This document shows, in pieces, positions 30,241 to 63,242 of a stretch of DNA of 64,000 bases. Location: NCBI RefSeq assembly GCF_003018255.1, contig NZ_CP027440.1, one strand, 5' to 3'. The notes beneath the pieces were generated by a model. The model saw nothing but the letters and a program-made list of their open reading frames with translations, was not told the DNA's origin and made no database searches. Both the position numbers and the translations under genes were made by a program. The stretch comes from Escherichia coli. Lineage in GTDB: Bacteria > Pseudomonadota > Gammaproteobacteria > Enterobacterales > Enterobacteriaceae. How positions within the stretch are numbered: the stretch's first letter is position 1; each line of letters begins with the position of its first letter.

Positions 30241-33200
30241 ATGAGCGGAAAACCGGCGGCGCGTCAGGGCGACATGACGCAGTATGGCGGTAGCATTGTC
30301 CAGGGTTCTGCCGGGGTACGTATTGGTGCCCCCACCGGTGTGGCCTGTTCGGTGTGCCCCGGCGGGGTGACGTCCGGTCATCCGGTCAATCCGCTGCTCG
30401 GTGCGAAGGTCCTTCCCGGCGAAACCGACCTTGCCCTGCCCGGCCCGCTGCCGTTCATTCTCTCCCGCACCTACAGCAGTTACCGGACAAAAACGCCCGC
30501 GCCGGTGGGGAGCCTCGGCCCCGGCTGGAAAATGCCTGCGGATATCCGCTTACAGCTGCGCGATAACACACTGATACTCAGTGATAACGGCGGCAGAAGC
30601 CTGTATTTTGAGCACCTGTTTCCCGGTGAGGACGGTTACAGCCGCAGCGAGTCACTCTGGCTGGTGCGCGGCGGCGTGGCGAAACTGGATGAAGGTCACC
30701 GGCTGGCCGCACTCTGGCAGGCGCTGCCGGAAGAGCTTCGCCTGAGTCCGCATCGTTATCTGGCGACGAACAGTCCGCAGGGGCCGTGGTGGGTATTCGG
30801 CTGGTGTGAGCGGGTGCCGGAGGCGGATGAGGTGCTGCCTGCGCCGCTGCCGCCGTACCGGATACTGACCGGGCTGGTGGACCGCTTCGGGCGCACACAG
30901 ACGTTTCACCGTGAGGCTGGCGGCGAATTCAGCGGCGAAATCACCGGCGTGACCGACGGCGCAGGCCGTCACTTCCGGCTGGTACTGACCACGCAGGCGC
31001 TGCGGGCAGAAGAGGCCCGGCAGAAGGCCACTTCCGGCGGGACGGAACCGTCCGCTTTTCCTGATACCCAGCCGGACTACACGGAATATGGCCGGGACAA
31101 CGGTATCCGTCTGTCTGCCGTGTGGCTGACGCACGACCCGGAATACCCGGAGAATTTACCTGCCGCGCCGCTGGTACGCTATGGCTGGACGCCGCGCGGC
31201 GAACTGGCGGCGGTGTATGACCGCAGCAATACACAGGTGCGCAGCTTTACTTACGATGATAAATACCGGGGCCGGATGGTGGCGCACCGTCACACGGGCC
31301 GGCCGGAAATCCGTTACCGTTACGACAGTGACGGGCGGGTGACAGAACAGCTAAACCCGGCAGGCTTAAGCTACACGTATCAGTATGAGAAAGACCACAT
31401 CACCATCACCGACAGCCTGGACCGCCGTGAAGTGCTGCACACGCAGGGCGAAGGCGGGCTGAAGCGGGTGGTGAAAAAGGAACACGCGGACGGCAGCGTC
31501 ACGCAGAGTCAGTTTGACGCGGTGGGCAGGCTTAAGGCACAGACGGATGCCGCAGGCCGGACGACTGAGTACAGCCCGGATGTGGTGACCGGACTCATCA
31601 CGCGCATCACCACGCCGGATGGCAGGGCATCGGCGTTTTACTATAACCACCACAGCCAGTTAACGTCAGCCACCGGGACTGACGGGCTGGAGTTGCGCAG
31701 GGAATATGATGAATCCAGCCGTCTGATTCAGGAAACTGCCCCTGACGGCGATATCACCCGCTACCGTTATGATAATCCACACAGTGACTTACCCTGCGCA
31801 ACGGACGATGCCACCGGCAGCCGGAAAACCATGACATGGAGCCGTTACGGTCAGTTGCTGACCGTCACTGACTGTTCCGGTTATGTAACCCGTTATGACC
31901 ATGACCGTTTTGGTCAGATGACGGCGGCGCACCGCGAGGAAGGGCTGAGTCAGTATCGCGCATACGACAGCCGTGGACAGTTAATTGCGGTGAAAGACAT
32001 GCAGGGCCATGAAACGCGGTATGAATACAACGCCGCCGGTGACCTGACCGCCGTCATTGCCCCGGACGGCAGCAGAAACGGGACACAGTACGATACGTGG
32101 GGAAAGGCCATCCGTACCACGCAGGGTGGTCTGACGCGCAGTATGGAATACGATGCTGCCGGACGGGTCATCCGCCTGACCAGTGAAAACGGCAGCCACA
32201 CCACCTTCCGTTACGATGTACTCGACCGGCTGATACAGGAAACCGGTTTTGACGGCCGCACACAGCGTTATCATCACGACCTGACCGGTAAACTTATCCG
32301 CAGCGAGGATGAGGGGCTGGTCACCCACTGGCACTATGACGAAGCAGACCGCATCACGCACCGCACCGTGAAGGGTGAAACCGCAGAACAGTGGCGGTAC
32401 GACGAACGCGGCTGGCTGACAGGCATCAGCCATCTCAGCGAAGGGCACCGGGTGACGGTGCATTACAGGTATGATGAGAAAGGCCGCCTGACCGGTGAGC
32501 GCCAGACGGTGCATCACCCGCAGACGGAAGCACTGCTCTGGCAGCATGAGACCAGACATGCGTACAACGCGCAGGGGCTGGCGAACCGCTGTATACCGGA
32601 CAGCCTGCCCGCCGTGGAATGGCTGACTTACGGCAGCGGCTGGCTGGCAGGCATGAAACTCGGCGACACACCGCTGGTGGATTTCACCCGTGACCGCCTG
32701 CACCGGGAAACGCTGCGCAGCTTCGGCCGTTATGAACTCACCACCGCTTATACCTCTGCCGGGCAGTTACAGAGCCAGCACCTGAACAGCCTGCAGTATG
32801 ACCGCGATTACACCTGGAACGACAACGGCGAACTCATCCGCATCAGCAGCCCGCGACAGACCCGGAGTTACAGCTACAGCGACTCCGGCAGGCTGACCGG
32901 CGTCCACACCACCACCTCAAATCTGGATATCCGCATCCCGTATGCCACGGACCCGGCAGGTAACCGCCTGCCCGACCCGGAGCTGCACCCGGACAGCACC
33001 CTCAGCATGTGGCCGGATAACCGTATCGCCCGTGACGCGCACTATCTTTACCGGTATGACCGTCACGGCAGGCTGACAGAGAAAACCGACCTCATCCCGG
33101 AAGGGGTTATCCGCACGGATGATGAGCGGACTCACCGGTACCATTACGACAGCCGGCACCGGCTGGTGCACTACACGCGGACACAATATGCAGAGCCGCT

Positions 33201-34158
33201 GGTCGAAAGTCGCTATCTTTACGACCCGCTGGGCCGCAGGGTGGCAAAACGGGTATGGCGGCGTGAACGGGACCTGACGGGCTGGATGTCGCTGTCACGG
33301 AAACCGGAAGTGACCTGGTACGGCTGGGACGGCGACCGGCTGACCACGATACAGAACGACAGAACCCGCATCCAGACGGTTTATCAGCCGGGGAGCTTCA
33401 CGCCACTCATCAGGGTCGAAACCGCCACCGGAGAGCTGGCGAAAACGCAGCGCCGCAGCCTGGCGGATGCCCTTCAGCAGTCCGGCGGCGAAGACGGTGG
33501 CAGTGTGGTGTTCCCGCCGGTGCTGGTGCAGATGCTCGACCGGCTGGAAAGTGAAATCCTGGCTGACCGGGTGAGTGAGGAAAGCCGCCGCTGGCTGGCA
33601 TCGTGCGGCCTGACGGTGGAGCAGATACAAAACCAGATGGACCCGGTGTACACGCCGGCGCGAAAAATCCACCTGTACCACTGCGACCATCGCGGCCTGC
33701 CGCTGGCGCTTGTCAGCACGGAAGGGGCAACAGAATGGTGCGCAGAATACGATGAATGGGGCAACCTGCTGAATGAAGAGAACCCGCACCAGCTGCAGCA
33801 GCTCATCCGCCTGCCGGGTCAGCAGTATGATGAGGAGTCCGGCCTCTATTACAACCGCCACCGCTATTATGACCCGCTGCAGGGGCGGTATATCACTCAG
33901 GATCCGATTGGGCTTAAGGGGGGATGGAATTTTTATCAGTATCCGTTGAATCCGATCACTAATATAGATCCTTTAGGATTAGAAACACTAAAATGCATTA
34001 AGCCACTGCATTCAATGGGCGGAACTGGTGAAAGAAGCGGTCCAGATATATGGGGGAATCCGTTCTATCATCAATATCTTTGTGTCCCAGATGGTAAAGG
34101 GGACTATACTTGTGGTGGCCAAGACCAACGGGGAGAATCAAAAGGAGATGGTCTATAG
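30241..34158 (+). CDS. rhsB: Rhs family protein (RhsB-locus): N-terminal region, YD-repeat core ending at PxxxxDPxGL, C-terminal toxin domain truncated by an in-frame TAG
   Basis: 1305 codons; many YD repeats (RYRYD, RYDH, YEYN, TFRYD ...); core-end motif [11 protein letters not shown] near 33945-33977; GC-rich core and AT-rich C-terminus; located between nikR and yhhJ. Confidence 0.88.
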
Positions 34159-34434
34159 GGGCCAGGTAAAGCAAGTAATGATACAAAAGAAGCTGCTGGC
34201 CGTTGTGACCTCGTTGAAACCGATAATAGTTGTGTGGAGAACTGTTTAAAAGGGAAGTTTAAAGAGGTAAGGCCGCGTTATTCTGTATTGCCTGATATAT
34301 TCACACCTATAAATTTAGGGCTATTTAAAAACTGCCAAGACTGGTCTAATGATTCTTTAGAAACATGTAAGATGAAGTGCTCCGGAAATAACATTGGACG
34401 TTTTATTAGATTTGTATTTACCGGAGTGATGTAA
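34159..34434 (+). other. Same-frame continuation of the Rhs C-terminal domain after the TAG (Cys-rich, uncharacterised)
   Basis: No stop in the rhs frame from 34159 to TAA at 34432-34434; encodes GPGKASNDTKEAAGRCDLVETDNSCVENCLKGKF ...; no Shine-Dalgarno before the internal GTG. Confidence 0.55.
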
Positions 34435-34760
34435 TGAAATGTATTATTTTTTTATTCAGAGCTATATGGCTGGCTTTATCGCTTTTAATACTATTCTTTT
34501 CCATGCATAGACTTTCACTATTAGACTCCACTCGTGATGTGAGCGAGTTAATTAGTCTCATGTCTTATGGAATGATGGTAATATGTTTTCCAACAGGCAT
34601 AGTATTCTTTATTGCTCTAATATTTATAGGGACTGTTTCAGACATTATTGGCGTAAGGATTGATAGTAAGTATATTATGGCGATAATAATATGGCTTTAT
34701 TTTCTGTCAGGAGGGTATATTCAATGGTTTGTATTAAGTAAGCGCATTATAAACAAATAA
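34434..34760 (+). CDS. Putative Rhs immunity protein (small 3-TM membrane protein)
   Basis: 108 aa; ATG overlaps the upstream TAA (TAATG); GGAG Shine-Dalgarno 7 nt upstream; three hydrophobic helices; AT-rich. Confidence 0.6.
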   Translation: MKCIIFLFRAIWLALSLLILFFSMHRLSLLDSTRDVSELISLMSYGMMVICFPTGIVFFIALIFIGTVSDIIGVRIDSKYIMAIIIWLYFLSGGYIQWFVLSKRIINK

Positions 34761-34794
34761 ATTAAGTTAATTGCTCTTGTTATTATATGTAACC

Positions 34795-35275
34795 TGGGCA
34801 TTGATATCCCGTATGCCACAGACCCGGCAGGCAACCGCCTGCCCGACCCGGAGCTGCACCCGGACAGCACCCTCAGCATGTGGCCGGATAACCGTATCGC
34901 CCGTGACGCGCACTATCTTTACCGGTATGACCGTCACGGCAGGCTGACAGAGAAAACCGACCTCATCCCGGAAGGGGTTATCCGCACGGATGATGAGCGG
35001 ACTCACCGGTACCATTACGACAGCCGGCACCGGCTGGTGCACTACACGCGGACACAATATGCAGAGCCGCTGGTCGAAAGCCGCTATCTTTACGACCCGC
35101 TGGGCCGCAGGGTGGCAAAACGGGTGTGGCGGCGTGAACGGGACCTGACGGGCTGGATGTCGCTGTCACGGAAACCGGAAGTGACCTGGTACGGCTGGGA
35201 CGGCGACCGGCTGACCACGATACAGAACGACAGAACCCGCATCCAGACGGTTTATCAGCCGGGGAGCTTCACGCC
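34795..35275 (+). pseudogene. Displaced rhs core fragment (near-identical copy of 32930-33407)
   Basis: ORF 34878-35312 encodes [26 protein letters not shown] ... QPGSFTP, matching the internal rhsB segment; the copy ends abruptly at the H-repeat junction. Confidence 0.8.
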
Positions 35276-36570
35276 CAGGGAAAGATCATCAGAAGTACAC
35301 TTTTTGTACTAAGTAATTCGCATTTTATGTTTAAAAATCGAGATATTCCTCATTACCTGAAGCTGTTTTTTATTGCGTATACATGATCAAATACTCCTTA
35401 CATAATTAAGGAGAACAAAATGGAACTTAAAAAATTGATGGAACATATTTCTATTATCCCCGATTACAGACAAGCCTGGAAAGTGGAACATAAATTGTCG
35501 GATATTCTACTGTTGACTATTTGTGCCGTTATTTCTGGTGCAGAAGGCTGGGAAGATATAGAGGATTTTGGGGAAACACATCTCGATTTTTTAAAACAAT
35601 ATGGTGATTTTGAAAATGGTATTCCTGTTCACGATACCATCGCCAGAGTTGTATCCTGTATCAGTCCTTCAAAATTTCACGAGTGCTTTATTAACTGGAT
35701 GCGAGATTGCCATACTTCAGATGATAAAGACGTCATCGCAATTGATGGAAAAACACTCCGGCATTCTTATGGCAAGAGTCGCCGCAGGGGAGCGATTCAT
35801 GTCATTAGTGCGTTCTCAACAATGCACAGTCTGGTCATCGGACAGATCAGGACGGATGAGAAATCCAATGAGATTACAGCTATCCCTGAACTTCTTAACA
35901 TGCTGGATATTAAAGGAAAAATAATCACAACTGATGCAATGGGTTGCCAGAAAGATATTGCAGAGAAGATACAAAAACAGGGCGGTGATTATTTATTCGC
36001 TGTAAAAGGAAATCAGGGGCGGCTAAATAAAGCCTTTGAGGAAAAATTCCCACTGAAAGAATTAAATAATCCAGAGCATGACAGTTACGCAATTAGTGAA
36101 AAGAGTCACGGCAGAGAAGAAATCCGTCTTCACATTGTTTGCGATGTCCCTGATGAACTTATTGATTTCACGTTTGAATGGAAAGGTCTGAAGAAATTAT
36201 GCGTGGCAGTCTCCTTTCGGTCAATAATAGCAGAACAAAAGAAAGAGCCAGAAATGACGGTCAGATATTATATCAGTTCTGCTGATTTAACCGCAGAGAA
36301 GTTCGCCATAGCAATCCGAAACCACTGGCACGTGGAGAATAAGCTGCACTGGCGTCTGGACGTGGTAATGAATGAAGACGACTGCAAAATAAGAAGAGGA
36401 AATGCAGCAGAATTATTTTCAGGGATACGGCACATTGCTATTAATATTTTGACGAATGATAAGGTATTCAAGGCAGGGTTAAGACGTAAGATGCGAAAAG
36501 CAGCCATGGACAGAAACTATCTCGCGTCAGTCCTTGCGGGGAGCGGGCTTTCGTAATCTTGCCCTGATCA
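35268..36570 (+). mobile_element. H-repeat (H-rpt) element, ISAs1 family
   Basis: Contains the 378-aa transposase ORF; both flanks are repeated in the second copy downstream. Confidence 0.75.
35420..36556 (+). CDS. yhhI: H-repeat-associated ISAs1-family transposase (YhhI-like)
   Basis: 378 aa, [32 protein letters not shown] ..., DDE transposase-like. Confidence 0.85.
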
Positions 36571-42269: not shown

Positions 42270-43002
42270 AATCGATCCGCCATAATCCCTGTAAGCAATC
42301 GACGCGTGTTACAACTGCCACCGAACGATGTTCAGCGGATTCTTCCATCCGGGATAAGAAGGAAATGGCAAATACGACCAGCGCACAGAGCATTGAGCGC
42401 CAATGGGGAAGGCTTAGTGAAAACGGGTAGTAATGTTGTCATCATCAGCATTCCTGGCCGTAAATGAAACACGCATACTCATAAGTGAAATCAATTAAAT
42501 ACTAACAGTTATATTCATGTTGTCTATTTGATTGCCATCAACTTGTGATACATCGCGATGTTCTTCCGTTCGCTGGTGTTTTTTCCAAAAATATTCTGTA
42601 CAGGTTCACAGATTCTGTTGCACAGGTTTCCGTAACAGGGAAACCTGATGACTATCACATAGCGTTATTATCGCCTGATGTGCGAATAAATACCGAATAT
42701 AAAATAATTTATTCTGAAAAGATGATAGATGATAAAGGCTCGTGGGTTTAATAAAATATTCCCTAAAAGACTCATTTAAAACAACAAAATAAGATAAAGA
42801 TATTAATTCAGAGTTTATCTTAGGATAAATATTTATTTAATAGCATTAACTCACAGCTAAAAGTTGATCCCCATAACGCTAAATCCGATTATAGTGAAGT
42901 TACTTTTTTTAATTGATGGCATCTTATAGACATATTTAACTAACTGAAAAGACGAATCATATGTTTTTCGAAGTGTAGCAGAAAATATATATGGGGTTTA
43001 AA

Positions 43003-44055
43003 ATGAATATATATATCGGATGGTTGTTTAAATTAATTCCTTTACTGATGGGTATAATATGCATCGCATTAGGTGAGTTTGTATTAACCGGTTCTGGGCA
43101 AAGTGAATATTTCGTTGCAGGGCATGTTCTGATTTCTCTTTCTGCGATATGTCTGGCATTGTTCACTACCGCATTTATTATTATATCTCAGTTAACTCAC
43201 GGCATGAATAAATTCTACAACAGGTTATTTCCCGTTATTGGTTATGCCGGTTCTGCTACAACTATGATTTGGGGATGGTCACTGTTGGCAAGCAATAATG
43301 TGATGGCAGATGAATTTGTCGCCGGTCATGTTATTTTCGGCGTTGGCATGATTGCCGCTTGTGTATCAACCGTAGCGGCATCTTCCGGACATTTTCTGTT
43401 GATCCCCAAAAACGCCTCGGGCAGTAAGAGTGACGGTACGCCATTGCAGGCCTATTCTTCAACAATCGGTAATTGCTTAATTGCCGTTCCCGTTCTGCTT
43501 ACTCTCTTTGGTTTCATTTGGTCAGTCATACTGTTACGTAGTGCAGATATCACACCACATTATGTTGCAGGTCACGTACTAATGGGGTTAACGGCAATTT
43601 GCGCTTGTCTTATTGGCCTTGTCGCCACTATTGTCCATCAAACGCGGAATACGTTCTCAGTGAAAGAACATTGGCTGTGGTGCTATTGGGTTATTTTGCT
43701 TGGCTCACTTACCATTATTTTTGGTATCTACGTATTAATCAGTTCAGATGCAAGCGCCCGCCTGGCCCCCGGCATTATTCTCATTTGCCTGGGGATGATC
43801 TGCTACAGTATTTTCTCCAAAGTGTGGTTGTTAGCGCTGGTATGGCGACGCACCTGTTCGTTAGCCAACAGAATACCCATGATTCCGGTATTTACCTGTC
43901 TGTTTTGTCTGTTCCTTGCTGCGTTCCTGGCTGAAATTGCGCAAACCGATATGGCTTACTTTATTCCTTCGCGAGTTCTGGTTGGCTTAGGTGCAGTTTG
44001 TTTTACACTGTTTTCCATCGTTTCTATATTAGAAGCGGGTTCAGCGAAAAAATAA
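43003..44055 (+). CDS. yhiM: Inner membrane protein YhiM
   Basis: Start at MNIYIGWLFKLIPLLMG, about 350 aa, multi-TM (an alternative start is at 42991). Confidence 0.75.
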   Translation: MNIYIGWLFKLIPLLMGIICIALGEFVLTGSGQSEYFVAGHVLISLSAICLALFTTAFIIISQLTHGMNKFYNRLFPVIGYAGSATTMIWGWSLLASNNVMADEFVAGHVIFGVGMIAACVSTVAASSGHFLLIPKNASGSKSDGTPLQAYSSTIGNCLIAVPVLLTLFGFIWSVILLRSADITPHYVAGHVLMGLTAICACLIGLVATIVHQTRNTFSVKEHWLWCYWVILLGSLTIIFGIYVLISSDASARLAPGIILICLGMICYSIFSKVWLLALVWRRTCSLANRIPMIPVFTCLFCLFLAAFLAEIAQTDMAYFIPSRVLVGLGAVCFTLFSIVSILEAGSAKK

Positions 44056-57990: not shown

Positions 57991-58416
57991 ATGAGCAACA
58001 TTACCATTTATCACAACCCGGCCTGCGGCACGTCGCGTAACACGCTGGAGATGATCCGCAACAGCGGCACAGAACCGACCATTGTCTATTATCTGGAAAC
58101 CCCACCGACGCGTGATGAACTGGTCAAACTCATTGCCGATATGGGGATTTCCGTACGCGCGCTGCTGCGTAAAAACGTCGAGCCGTATGAGGAACTGGGC
58201 CTTGCAGAAGATAAATTTACTGACGATCGGTTAATCGACTTTATGCTTCAGCACCCGATTCTGATTAATCGCCCGATTGTGGTGACGCCGTTGGGAACTC
58301 GCCTGTGCCGCCCTTCAGAAGTCGTGCTGGAAATTCTGCCAGATGCGCAACAAGGCGCGTTCACCAAGGAAGATGGCGAGAAAGTGGTTGATGAAGCGGG
58401 TAAACGCTTGAAATAA
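57991..58416 (+). CDS. arsC: Arsenate reductase ArsC (glutaredoxin-coupled)
   Basis: 141 aa, MSNITIYHNPACGTSRN catalytic Cys motif. Confidence 0.93.
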   Translation: MSNITIYHNPACGTSRNTLEMIRNSGTEPTIVYYLETPPTRDELVKLIADMGISVRALLRKNVEPYEELGLAEDKFTDDRLIDFMLQHPILINRPIVVTPLGTRLCRPSEVVLEILPDAQQGAFTKEDGEKVVDEAGKRLK

Positions 58417-58538: not shown

Positions 58539-58835
58539 TCAGGCAATTTTGCTATTTACGCAGCACTCCTCGCGTAAGAATTCAATTATCGCTTCCAGCA
58601 TTGCGTATTGCGAAACACACATCAGCGTTCGACTCTCACGGTTTTGTTTGACCAGCCCTACCGATACCAGTGCTGAAATATGGTGACTGAGTGTAGAGCC
58701 GGGTATCCCAAGCTGCTTTTGCAACTCACCGACCGGCAACCCTTGTTCCCCGGCTTTGACAAGATGTTTAAATATGAACAAACGGGTCGGGTGACCTAGC
58801 TCTTTCAGCGCTTTAGCGACTTCTTCCAACTGCAT
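58539..58835 (-). CDS. ArsR/SmtB-family transcriptional regulator with a C-terminal Cys cluster
   Basis: 98 aa from MQLEEVAKALKELGHPTRLFIFKHL (winged HTH); lacks the CVC motif but has C-terminal MCVS ... REECC cysteines; strong Shine-Dalgarno; divergent from the permease. Confidence 0.7.
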   Translation of the reverse strand: MQLEEVAKALKELGHPTRLFIFKHLVKAGEQGLPVGELQKQLGIPGSTLSHHISALVSVGLVKQNRESRTLMCVSQYAMLEAIIEFLREECCVNSKIA

Positions 58836-58941
58836 ATGATCCCCCTCTGTCTGGTTGATATTTCGATAATACCAGAAATATCTTGATCTGAATTTCATTT
58901 CGATTATTCTGGAAATATAGATTTATTCAATGAGGTTATGT

Positions 58942-59943
58942 ATGAGTAGTTGGCTTGCGATGCTGCAAGATGCCACAGAGATGTTTGTGTTTCTCGCCGT
59001 CGAGCTTTCTTTGCTGTTTATAGTGATTAGTGCCGGTGTGAGCCTGATAAGACAAAAGGTGCCAGACCATAAAATCCAGCAGATGATGGGGGCAAGAAAA
59101 GGGAAAGGCTATCTCCTGGCTGCTCTGTTGGGAGCCGTCACCCCGTTCTGTAGTTGCTCGACAATCCCTATGTTACGTGGATTGTTATCAGCGAAAGCCG
59201 GGTTTGGTCCGACCCTCACTTTTTTATTTGTTTCCCCATTACTTAATCCCATTATCGTCGGGTTAATGTGGGTGACCTTTGGCTGGAAAGTTACCTTGTT
59301 GTATGCGATTATCGCCGCCGGCGTCTCCGTACTTGCCAGTATTATCCTCGATTCTCTGGGATTTGAACGTCATATCATTGCCAGTAAAAGCTCATCAGCA
59401 AATTGTTGTGCTCCAGCCAAAACTTCGCCGGGGACGACATATACGCCAATAAAAGTGAGTTGCTGTAGTCCAGCGGCTAAAGCCATTGAGAAACCTGTAG
59501 TAAACTGTTGCAGTACCAAAGCTGTGGTAAGTATTAATCCCATAAAACTAGCCACCAAAGATGCGTTGCAACAGTTTAAAGATGTACTGCCATATCTTTT
59601 GTTAGGGGTATTAATAGGCTCTTTTATTTATGGCTTTATTCCCTCAGAGTGGATTGCCGCTCATGCAGGGGCAGATAATCCCTTCGCCATCCCATTGAGC
59701 GCCGTTGTCGGTATTCCGCTATATATCCGGGCAGAGGCGGTTATCCCTCTGGCATCTGTTCTGATGACAAAAGGAATGGGTCTGGGAGCATTAATGGCAT
59801 TAATCATCGGCAGTGCCGGCGCAAGCCTGACGGAAGTGATATTACTTAAATCAATGTTCAGAATACCGATGATAGTTGCATTCCTGACGGTTATATTAGG
59901 TATGGCTATCTTGATGGGCTATTTGACTCAAATGCTATTTTAA
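58942..59943 (+). CDS. ArsP-like permease (COG0701/DUF318) with TPFCSCS motif and Cys-rich loop
   Basis: About 333 aa, multi-TM; VTPFCSCSTIPMLRG motif typical of ArsP-type organoarsenical permeases; central loop CCAPAKTSP ... VSCCSPAAK ... VNCCSTK. Confidence 0.6.
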   Translation: MSSWLAMLQDATEMFVFLAVELSLLFIVISAGVSLIRQKVPDHKIQQMMGARKGKGYLLAALLGAVTPFCSCSTIPMLRGLLSAKAGFGPTLTFLFVSPLLNPIIVGLMWVTFGWKVTLLYAIIAAGVSVLASIILDSLGFERHIIASKSSSANCCAPAKTSPGTTYTPIKVSCCSPAAKAIEKPVVNCCSTKAVVSINPIKLATKDALQQFKDVLPYLLLGVLIGSFIYGFIPSEWIAAHAGADNPFAIPLSAVVGIPLYIRAEAVIPLASVLMTKGMGLGALMALIIGSAGASLTEVILLKSMFRIPMIVAFLTVILGMAILMGYLTQMLF

Positions 59944-60523
59944 ATAGATGCCAGCAGTAAACTATAAGGAGCATTGTGAGTGCCTTATCCTTCTGAGTAG
60001 AAAATCATAGATAGGATAATCCTTAAAAATCACAAATAACTTAACTAATGCTTTGAGAATGATGACGGATCCGTCAGTAAGTTATCAATCGACAATCACC
60101 ACGCAATCATGCTTCTCTGACATTTTATCGGAGAAGCAATGTCTCTTTGTTTCAGTGCTATCCCCCCTTTTAAAGGGCAGATTTCAGTCGCCAATACAAC
60201 ACATTTTTAAATACACTTTAACCTGGTTCATTATTACACATCTAAAACATCACAAAAATATCACTTCACACACTATCGGTGAACATCATAACTTTTTAAA
60301 ATGAGCGCTTTTTGATAGTTGTTAACGTTTTCCTTTACGATACTATCACTGCCCTTTTTTTATACACAAATATTACCGGGTGGAAATGAAAGGGAAGTTA
60401 AAGGTAATTATATCAGGAAGATATGACGCATTGTGTTTATTTCCGCGTAGAAGAAAATCCATTCCTGCTCTAATTCTCCGATTTACAAAAATTTAGCGAA
60501 ATAGATGAACAATAAGGAATGTT

Positions 60524-61747
60524 ATGTCAATTGACTTTACCCCATGTATGATAAATACATATCACGGCGATATTTATAACCGCACAACAGATACCGACAA
60601 TGTTAAAACACCAGACACACCGAAGTGGCCTTGCGATAATTGGGAAGAACAACAACCCATTAATTCCACATTCTCTGGAGAAGGATATACCTCTGATCAA
60701 TATGATTTAGCGCAATACCAACTTCAACAAATTAATGCGTGCCACACGAACACTACATATACAAATGCAGACTACTCAAAAGTTGTGGCTCAACTTGTAA
60801 GTCTTATTACTAACATTGAAACGATAAGTTCGACACAACTTACGCAACAGACACAATCAATACTTAATCAGATTAATAACATTAGATACGAAAAAAACAA
60901 AAGTGCTGAATATCGAATCATTGTTGTCGCTAATCCTAAACCCGACAAGGCAATCATAACTAAAATTAGCGTAGAAGAGGGAATACCAGTAAGATTCAGT
61001 GTCCAAACCATGTTTTCAGATACTAATTTTATTACTGAACAACGAGCTGACTTACCGACTAATATAAAAGATATTCAAAGCCTGTATCAAAAAATGACGA
61101 AGTTATATATTGAACACAGTGAAAATAAAAACAGGATGAAAGTCTTTGCTGGAACCAACTTTATTGATTTCAATGTGACAGGACAGGACCTTTCCGGGTT
61201 CGTTCTAACCTTGTCAAGGTTTTATTTCGAAGATCTACTTAATATAAATTTCACTGACGCAAATTTAGGTGACACTATTTTTTCACATAAAGAACACCCT
61301 ACCCCAAAATTATATAAAGACGAACAATATCTTGACAAACAAATCGAAGGTTTATTTTCAACATTATTAACCATTAATGACAACTTTTTACGAGCAAAAG
61401 CGGAAATTGCTTCGACAATAATTAAATTCTTAGAGGCCAGGATAACCAATATTTCATACAATGACATATTAAAATATCAGCAAGAATTCAAAAAACAATG
61501 TTATAAGCAAGTTAAAGCCTTTACGACACTCTCCCGATACAATAAAATTCAAACATGGGCAGAAATGTCTGAATATCAATTCGAAGTATTTCAATACGAG
61601 ACGCTTAACCCAAAAAAAATGTCATACGCACCTTATTTAAAGAGATCGCTACCTGATGAAAAAACTATAAATTATGGGGTGGAAATAGAAACACCAACTG
61701 GCAAAAGAATTCGCTTATTAAATCATTACCAGAATATAATCCCATAA
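60524..61747 (+). CDS. yhiS: YhiS-like protein, apparently intact (uncharacterised, AT-rich, pentapeptide-repeat-like segment)
   Basis: 407-aa uninterrupted ORF between ars and slp; low GC; periodic segment [35 protein letters not shown]. Confidence 0.6.
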
Positions 61748-61992
61748 TATTGAACATTAGCACTTTATAATCATTGAATAAAAATAGATTTTATGTACCT
61801 TTAAAAAAAGGCTATTTTATGGGGCGATGGATACTCATGTCACGCCCCAAAATTAACAGAATTAAACTAAACAGAAGGGATATAAACATCAGACAGGTTT
61901 ACGTTACTATCAGGCATATCGCCTCAGAATCAGATGAAAACTATAAAGAAATATCTATTATGGTTTTAATATTTGTTGATAAGGATAGTAAC

Positions 61993-62559
61993 ATGAACAT
62001 GACAAAAGGTGCACTCATCCTCAGCCTTTCATTTTTGCTTGCCGCATGTAGTTCAATTCCGCAAAATATCAAAGGCAATAACCAACCTGATATTCAAAAA
62101 AGTTTTGTTGCTGTTCATAACCAGCCGGGGTTATATGTTGGTCAACAAGCGCGCTTTGGCGGGAAGGTTATCAACGTTATCAATGGCAAAACGGATACGT
62201 TGTTAGAAATCGCTGTATTACCGTTGGATAGCTATGCGAAGCCTGATATTGAAGCCAACTATCAGGGCCGACTGCTCGCCAGACAAAGCGGCTTCCTTGA
62301 TCCAGTGAACTATCGTAATCACTTTGTTACCATCCTCGGTACCATTCAGGGTGAACAACCTGGCTTTATCAATAAAGTCCCGTATAACTTCCTGGAAGTG
62401 AATATGCAGGGCATCCAGGTGTGGCATTTGAGAGAAGTGGTTAATACCACCTATAACCTGTGGGATTACGGCTATGGTGCATTCTGGCCGGAACCGGGCT
62501 GGGGCGCGCCTTACTACACCAATGCGGTGAGTCAAGTAACACCTGAGCTGGTCAAATAA
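61993..62559 (+). CDS. slp: Starvation-inducible outer membrane lipoprotein Slp
   Basis: Start at MNMTKGALILSLSFLLAAC (lipobox), 188 aa. Confidence 0.9.
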   Translation: MNMTKGALILSLSFLLAACSSIPQNIKGNNQPDIQKSFVAVHNQPGLYVGQQARFGGKVINVINGKTDTLLEIAVLPLDSYAKPDIEANYQGRLLARQSGFLDPVNYRNHFVTILGTIQGEQPGFINKVPYNFLEVNMQGIQVWHLREVVNTTYNLWDYGYGAFWPEPGWGAPYYTNAVSQVTPELVK

Positions 62560-62711
62560 CACCACCGAGAGATGCAGATGCTTTCTCAGCATCTGCATCA
62601 TGCATTACATCAAATTAATACACAGCCAGCTAACTATTATTATAAGCCCTGTCCTGTTAATTACCTTTGGCAAACTGATTATAAAGTTAATGTCCGCACC
62701 AGGAGTCGGTT

Positions 62712-63242
62712 ATGTTTCTTATAATTACCAGGGATACGATGTTCTTCACTGCGATGAAAAACATTCTGAGTAAAGGTAATGTCGTTCATATACAGAACGA
62801 AGAAGAGATCGACGTAATGTTGCATCAGCATGCCTTCGTCATTATTGATACATTAATGAATAATGTATTTCATTCTAATTTGCTCACTCAGATTGAACGA
62901 TTAAAACCTGTCCATGTGATTATTTTCTCTCCCTTTAATATTAAACGCTGCCTGGGGAAAGTACCGGTGACCTTTGTTCCGCGAACTATCACCATCATCG
63001 ACTTTGTCGCACTCATCAATGGCAGTTACTGCTCTGTGCCTGAAGCGGATGTGTCCCTTTCGCGCAAGCAGCATCAGGTTCTGAGCTGCATTGCGAATCA
63101 AATGACAACGGAAGATATTCTGGAGAAACTGAAAATATCGCTAAAAACGTTCTACTGCCATAAACACAATATCATGATGATCCTCAATCTTAAGCGGATC
63201 AATGAGTTGGTACGCCATCAGCATATTGATTATCTGGTGTGA
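62712..63242 (+). CDS. dctR: LuxR-family regulator DctR (YhiF)
   Basis: 176 aa with C-terminal LuxR-type HTH; position after slp. Confidence 0.8.
   Translation: MFLIITRDTMFFTAMKNILSKGNVVHIQNEEEIDVMLHQHAFVIIDTLMNNVFHSNLLTQIERLKPVHVIIFSPFNIKRCLGKVPVTFVPRTITIIDFVALINGSYCSVPEADVSLSRKQHQVLSCIANQMTTEDILEKLKISLKTFYCHKHNIMMILNLKRINELVRHQHIDYLV

Follow-up and report, generated by a model that had tools for sequence, protein, structure and literature searches.

Intact yhiS of Escherichia coli: a hypervariable, AT-rich gene kept open by selection and predicted to encode a single pentapeptide-repeat module

The window analysed here, a 64,000-nt stretch of Escherichia coli chromosomal DNA (contig NZ_CP027440.1), contains an uninterrupted copy of yhiS, a gene that is broken in K-12. 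The yhiS reading frame is maintained by selection, while constraint on the protein is relaxed. With moderate confidence, yhiS is considered to be the intact form of a protein-coding gene under weak purifying selection, so far seen in E. coli and Shigella only, whose product would carry a mini beta-helix as a scaffold within a dispensable accessory factor.

The ORF (60524-61747, plus strand) begins with ATG and runs through 407 codons and a stop without interruption, and it is preceded by a good Shine-Dalgarno sequence. This agrees with an earlier, sequence-only reading of the window. The ORF is 100% identical to the copy in E. coli strain JNE23-011. Its neighbours are arsC (together with an ArsR-family regulator and a permease) on one side and slp-dctR-chuS on the other. 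Both its position between arsC and slp-dctR and its nucleotide identity place it in the yhiS orthologue group (b3504, a pseudogene in K-12), and the order arsC-yhiS-slp is common to the window and eight other strains. The K-12 MG1655 copy matches at 97.1% identity over ORF nt 1-746 only, after which come an IS5 transposase and, beyond it, the remainder of the gene; the statement in the same reading that K-12 yhiS is split by an insertion sequence was correct. The features of the locus are listed in Table 1.

The PGAP annotation calls the identical JNE23-011 copy (NZ_AP045067.1, L001 9001-10117, equivalent to window 60524-61640) a 'frameshifted' pseudogene. Because the window protein and the dominant 407-aa alleles are colinear across all 407 residues, this label is probably an annotation artefact of comparison with a truncated 371-aa reference.

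Table 1. Features of yhiS and its upstream region (window coordinates)
Feature	Coordinates	Strand	Basis and remarks
AT-rich spacer 5' of yhiS	59944..60523	+	GC about 34-38%; composition and sequence
Shine-Dalgarno AAGGA	60514-60518	+	5 nt before ATG; read directly from sequence
yhiS coding sequence, 407 codons plus stop, intact	60524..61747	+	ORF, alignments, frame maintenance, dN/dS
N-terminal tail, residues 1-56, polar (T/N/D/P-rich)	60524..60691	+	Sequence; AF2 pLDDT 23-35 for most
N-domain, residues 57-200	60692..61123	+	Predicted helices, 5-stranded beta-sheet, helix
Pentapeptide-repeat segment, residues 206-255, 10 pentads	61139..61288	+	Periodicity, homology searches, conservation; about 2.5 predicted turns of four-sided beta-helix
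Site equivalent to K-12 IS5 insertion	61269..61270		After ORF nt 746; TTAG at 61265-61268; inside repeat segment
Module linker, residues 256-278	61289..61357	+	Aligns with 'QLYSTKSYQDKDLxG' linker of PEP-CTERM-type pentapeptide proteins; within hhalign alignment
C-terminal region, residues 279-407, predicted helical	61358..61744	+	AF2 (low confidence), conservation
A8 homopolymer inside coding sequence	61612..61619	+	1-nt length change in C/A tract gives 371-aa truncated alleles

The sequence-only reading had pointed to a five-residue periodicity in YhiS, quoting the pentads at residues 219-253. The periodicity is real and longer than claimed, with hydrophobic residues in register over 10 pentads (F208, F213, V218, L223, L228, F233, L238, F243, L248 and F253); at least eight tandem in-register A(D/N)LXX-type pentads with an L/F centre had been taken as the minimum. 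For no other period from 2 to 8 does YhiS contain a run longer than 6. Shuffling produced a run of at least 10 pentads in 7 of 20,000 cases. When the A(D/N)LXX-type features are scored together (a hydrophobic residue at the centre, D/N at i-1 and a small one at i-2), YhiS obtains 20, compared with 12.9 +/- 1.2 in shuffles, and none of 5,000 shuffles attained its score. The centre is hydrophobic in 10/10 pentads and i-1 is D or N in 6/10. Position i-2 is small (A/C/S/T/V) in only 4/10; the remaining six residues (K, F, Q, F, E and I) are atypical for pentapeptide-repeat proteins (PRPs), which counts against the preferred reading. The ten centre positions are hydrophobic in 96/96 distinct full-length sequences (the window protein and 95 database cluster representatives), the last five being invariant. 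Conservation along YhiS peaks within the repeat, in the 15-mers that begin at residues 233-234, and the repeat core is markedly better conserved than the remainder of YhiS.

In a phmmer search of 1.84 billion cluster representatives, the single full-length cluster was that of E. coli itself (plus fragments of that cluster), and the only remote matches were four long repeat proteins aligned to residues ~205-285 (E-values: 1.5e-5 to 1.5e-4). Pfam PF00805 is present in each of the four, and a weak PEP-CTERM match in three. By hhalign, YhiS residues 206-278 align with the ~70-residue modules of PRPs over 73 columns (96.6% probability, E-value: 5.6e-10), and the alignment runs on through a non-repeat linker motif, conserved in the form LY..Y.DK..G. 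In these comparisons the YhiS segments and the modules were aligned independently, and 30 column-shuffled controls gave at most 3.2% probability (E-value: 0.014). A profile of the alleles found only PRPs among PDB sequences (Rfr32, E-value: 0.0065; TL15; QnrB1), all at residues 203-256, and a single-sequence PDB search found Rfr32 (2f3l; E-value: 0.013) at residues 205-254. The QnrB model of NCBIfam gives a weak signal on the repeat segment (E-value: 0.12).

Because of the hhalign match to PRP modules and because the sole remote matches are true PRPs, YhiS is judged from sequence comparison to hold one genuine but sub-Pfam pentapeptide-repeat module, consisting of ~2.5 predicted beta-helix turns and a conserved linker. 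Pfam finds no pentapeptide domain in any allele tested: families PF00805, PF13599 and PF13576 do not match the window protein even at E<=10 and match none of 14 yhiS alleles at E<=0.1, a further point against the preferred reading. The pentapeptide-repeat likeness proposed from the sequence alone holds as significant similarity to true PRPs (phmmer, hhalign) but fails at the level of Pfam. Single-module repeats are missed at the thresholds of domain libraries.

It is highly improbable that the periodicity arose by chance or from the composition of an AT-rich ORF, with no pentapeptide-repeat fold behind it. Such an explanation would fit the missing Pfam match, the atypical i-2 positions and the outcome of unseeded AF2 modelling, which produced no beta-helix. 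It is opposed by the rarity of both the run and the motif score in shuffled sequences, by library-wide significant matches to PRPs only, by an hhalign score far above its controls in an alignment extending through a non-repeat linker, and by the retention of the hydrophobic centres in every distinct full-length sequence.

The closest known relatives of the module are found in PEP-CTERM-type modular PRPs of environmental bacteria (P0152, P0156, P0158 and P0159; PF00805/PF13599). Their unit of ~70 residues comprises about 8-10 pentads followed by the linker 'QLYSTKSYQDKDLxG', and YhiS residues 203-278 align to this unit, linker included, with small indels only and a constant pentad register. The modular proteins have 4-15 tandem modules, 54% GC, an ordinary chromosomal context and, in three cases, a weak PEP-CTERM sorting signal, whereas the single module of YhiS lies between unrelated domains, and YhiS, at 34% GC, shows neither a sorting signal nor a match at the level of Pfam. 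Residues 203-256 find their best sequence and structure matches in Rfr-fold PRPs (Rfr32, 2f3l/2g0y; TL15, 3n90; Np275; alr1298), which share with YhiS the A(D/N)LXX-like register and L/F centre. These proteins are essentially all repeat (4-8 turns), whereas the repeat makes up about 12% of YhiS and has atypical i-2 residues.

The resemblance to pentapeptide-repeat proteins had led the sequence-only reading to mention DNA mimics. Qnr, MfpA and AlbG have the same repeat type and match YhiS weakly. Qnr and MfpA consist almost entirely of repeat (8-10 turns) and as dimers reach the length of a DNA segment, and the PRP beta-helix rises 4.8 Å per turn. The 10 pentads of YhiS would give about 2.5 turns, or roughly 12 Å of helix; about 50 of its 407 residues are repeat. 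With the QnrB model NF000420 the score is 12.3 bits, where the cutoff is 460, and the PRPs that match best (Rfr32, TL15 and the PEP-CTERM modular proteins) do not belong to the Qnr group. Because the helix is too short and the QnrB score so far below its cutoff, a Qnr/MfpA/AlbG-like mimic protecting topoisomerases is very unlikely, to the point of being barely credible.

Outside the repeat module, YhiS matches nothing known in the databases searched. Pfam, NCBIfam, PADLOC and PHROGs return no significant family: 0 families of the PADLOC-DB anti-phage defence models match, and the sole PHROGs match, to a tape-measure protein, is not significant (E-value: 0.048). The C-terminal region has no family match in Pfam or NCBIfam and no match in the PDB sequence search, and it holds the most variable stretch of the protein (about residues 347-365). 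No signal peptide or hydrophobic/membrane segment is apparent by eye. With an alleles-only alignment, AF2 models the full-length protein at a mean pLDDT of 46, unusable outside residues ~80-200, and Foldseek with this model finds nothing in the PDB better than E=0.05, with TM below 0.16. When no PRP sequences are present in the alignment, AF2 makes the repeat segment a low-confidence helix (pLDDT about 28), which also tells against the preferred reading. The beta-helix model of YhiS depends on an alignment that includes true PRPs as seeds, which biases it towards this fold.

The layout predicted from these models is an N-terminal alpha/beta domain, a single PRP module with its linker and a C-terminal helical region. 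The 10 pentads would fold into a right-handed four-sided beta-helix of ~2.5 turns, at the 20 residues per turn of the Rfr fold. By analogy with other PRPs, this mini beta-helix may hold the domains on either side of it, as a rigid scaffold or a surface for protein binding.

The Salmonella SPI-2 effectors PipB and PipB2 and the NleL/SopA beta-helix domains show an order of parts resembling the predicted one, with an alpha/beta domain at the N terminus and a pentapeptide beta-helix after it. YhiS might by this analogy be a diverged relative or analogue of PipB, PipB2 or EspX/NleL-class effectors, secreted by a T3SS (ETT2 or LEE) and binding a host protein through its beta-helix, but this is rated as distinctly unlikely. 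The structural matches are weak. YhiS differs from these proteins in having no LFNEF motif, no HECT-like domain, a much shorter helix and an extra C-terminal region of ~130 residues. The exhaustive phmmer search lists no PipB, PipB2 or EspX protein at E<=1e-3, no effector family in NCBIfam matches YhiS at E<=1, and PDB entries 2lez, 3sqv and 2qyu are not listed at E<=10.

The coding status of yhiS is indicated by several measures. The chance of 407 open codons at yhiS composition is ~6e-14. Among the alleles of seven strains at the same locus, Nei-Gojobori dN/dS is 0.25-0.58 in 21/21 pairs, with dS ranging from 0.008 to 0.68. When the observed substitutions were redistributed at random with the substitution spectrum kept, the frame stayed open in 3/20,000 trials for the window and L005 (175 differences) and in 0/20,000 for the window and L007 (285 differences). 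Because random substitutions at equal density so rarely leave the ORF open, the frame must have been kept open by selection. A dN/dS below 1 in every pair, the retained frame and the conserved repeat core together argue for purifying selection over most of the history of the gene.

All named YhiS homologues are from E. coli or Shigella, and no relatives were found on phages or genuine plasmids. A plasmid source was considered and rejected, as the three 'plasmid' matches (PLSDB NZ_CP134663.1, NZ_CP141089.1 and NZ_OL790696.1) are records of 4.8-4.9 Mb with the chromosomal yhiS locus, evidently chromosomes filed as plasmids. A scan of species-representative genomes with YhiS peptide patterns gave no match; such scans are uninformative for E. 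coli itself, which was probably represented by the deletion remnant of ATCC 11775 (taken here as the GTDB representative of the species) without the probed region. Two matches to a conserved 21-mer DNA pattern, in Bacillus and in an alphaproteobacterial MAG, were dismissed as chance by tblastn (E>0.6).

A megablast match to yhiS is present in 4,364 of 5,426 complete genomes (coverage of at least 80% in 3,993), and the gene is absent or reduced to a remnant in about 20%. Identity to the window copy is at least 99% in only 6 genomes, 95-99% in 2,598, 90-95% in 1,335 and 80-90% in 425; a further allele class with 61% protein identity occupies the same locus in 2 genomes. The alleles span 61-95% protein identity, whereas adjacent slp is 99-100% identical. 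A chimeric permease/slp probe for 'empty' loci found no joined places; it supplied the slp conservation figures, according to which slp is present in 5,419 genomes and at least 99% identical in 5,024 of them. Taken feature by feature, divergence between strains is confined to yhiS and its upstream spacer. Between the window and L007, yhiS is 76.8% and the spacer 77% identical, compared with 100% for slp and 99.6% for dctR. Across loci L003-L009, window positions 59944-61747 are 77-95% identical between strains, and slp/dctR (61993-63242) 97-100%. The dS of 0.6-0.7 reached by yhiS is judged to lie far above typical values for E. coli core genes, and the alleles are visibly mosaic.

At least four routes to the inactivation of yhiS are seen, in different lineages: insertion of IS5 in K-12, insertion of IS1 in strain SCU-172, a 1-nt change in a C/A tract that leads to 371-aa proteins in O157:H7 and S. 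dysenteriae, and an internal deletion of ~900 bp in the type strain ATCC 11775. The C/A tract reads C3A8 in the window and C4A6 in O157:H7. The 371-aa truncated alleles occur on several allele backgrounds (P0049, P0053, P0055 and P0058), and the tract could be a slippage hotspot. Because of the deep allelic divergence, the mosaic alleles and the repeated inactivation, YhiS is likely to be a dispensable accessory factor.

The same observations bear on the possibility that yhiS is a relic, that is, an old xenogeneic, H-NS-silenced gene without current function which is drifting to loss and whose ORF persists through slow decay. A dN/dS of ~0.4 combined with frequent inactivation also fits a gene losing function, and the independent kinds of inactivation, the loss from about one-fifth of complete genomes, the reported binding of H-NS/StpA and the reported lack of response to YdeO (see below) are all in keeping with it. 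This explanation is possible though unlikely. It must account for a 407-codon frame that is open between alleles at dS 0.3-0.6, when randomised substitutions almost never allowed this, for a dN/dS below 1 in all pairs and for a repeat core whose conservation is markedly above that of other parts of YhiS. Weak purifying selection on an intact gene is preferred.

The base composition of yhiS (GC 33.7%, GC3 29.9%) is the lowest on both measures among the 38 window ORFs of at least 200 codons, for which the median is 54.3% for GC (sd 5.5) and 62.8% for GC3 (sd 9.4). The sequence-only reading was right that GC is low relative to the backbone. For the horizontal origin that it suggested on this ground there is no identifiable donor; such an origin, if real, would be ancient. 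The upstream spacer is as divergent between alleles as yhiS itself (77-92% identity). Promoter-like sites in the upstream region do not exceed chance (13 versus 10.4 +/- 3.0 expected), and a scan for promoters and terminators around yhiS gave no more sites than expected from shuffling. The spacer contains a terminator-like hairpin (60110-60138; stem of 11 bp) ~170 nt past the permease stop; it is the sole such site in 59900-62100, a count not above shuffled expectation.

The AT-rich DNA that harbours yhiS borders the acid fitness island. In K-12, arsC/yhiS is listed among the H-NS-bound 'promoter islands' (PMC3661553), binding of yhiS DNA by H-NS/StpA has been reported in the literature, and yhiS is reported not to respond to YdeO, the neighbouring acid-resistance regulator. 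By extension from K-12, the AT-rich DNA around yhiS would be bound and probably silenced by H-NS/StpA in this strain as well. The literature search found no functional study of yhiS and no link of yhiS or yhaC to pentapeptide repeats.

YhaC (K-12 b3121, L013 19130-20317; NF007262) resembles YhiS in its length of about 400 aa, its restriction to E. coli and Shigella among named matches and its variable alleles (65-99% identical), and is encoded at a different locus. It contains a short degenerate pentapeptide-like stretch in mid-protein (residues ~151-207; Alr5209 model E-value: 0.12). Homology between the two proteins, suggested by Foldseek, was rejected (BLASTP E-value: 1.5; hhalign 0.4%), and the NF007262 model does not match YhiS at E<=1. 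One speculation, held to be a slender chance, is that YhiS and the unrelated YhaC belong to one class of hypervariable, H-NS-silenced proteins specific to E. coli, each with an N-domain and a mini pentapeptide beta-helix. These might be ancient PipB-like proteins of effector or antagonistic interactions, their old alleles (dS up to about 0.7 beside 100%-identical slp) being preserved through selection of a balancing or diversifying kind and reshuffled in recombination instead of drifting as junk.

yhiS is an unexplained 'y-gene' that has escaped study largely because the K-12 copy is broken. The putative PRP module provides a first structural handle on its product, and the tempting Qnr-like reading is strongly disfavoured. 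The difference between yhiS and slp makes this border of the acid fitness island a local hotspot of old polymorphism, and the locus is a tractable case in which to ask whether H-NS-silenced orphan genes are maintained by selection or decaying. Unless a function is found for YhiS, current understanding is unchanged; further study might be worthwhile only for its local hypervariability and its weak likeness to PipB.

Some other parts of the window can be described briefly. Between arsC and yhiS (58539-59943) lie a regulator of the ArsR/SmtB family (minus strand) and an SO_0444-like/ArsP-type permease. This pair is present in the window, L004-L006 and L009 and absent in K-12, O157:H7 and L007; ATCC 11775 (L012) lacks arsR and arsB. 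arsC itself (57991-58416) is unusually divergent between strains (92.7-96% nucleotide identity), and the zone of variation may also take in part of the ars region upstream. A separate 354-aa ORF of low GC (43%) at 42991-44055 has no NCBIfam match. At 30241-36556, an ISAs1-family (H-repeat) transposase (378 aa, 41% GC) comes after an RHS core protein (1305 aa, 61% GC).
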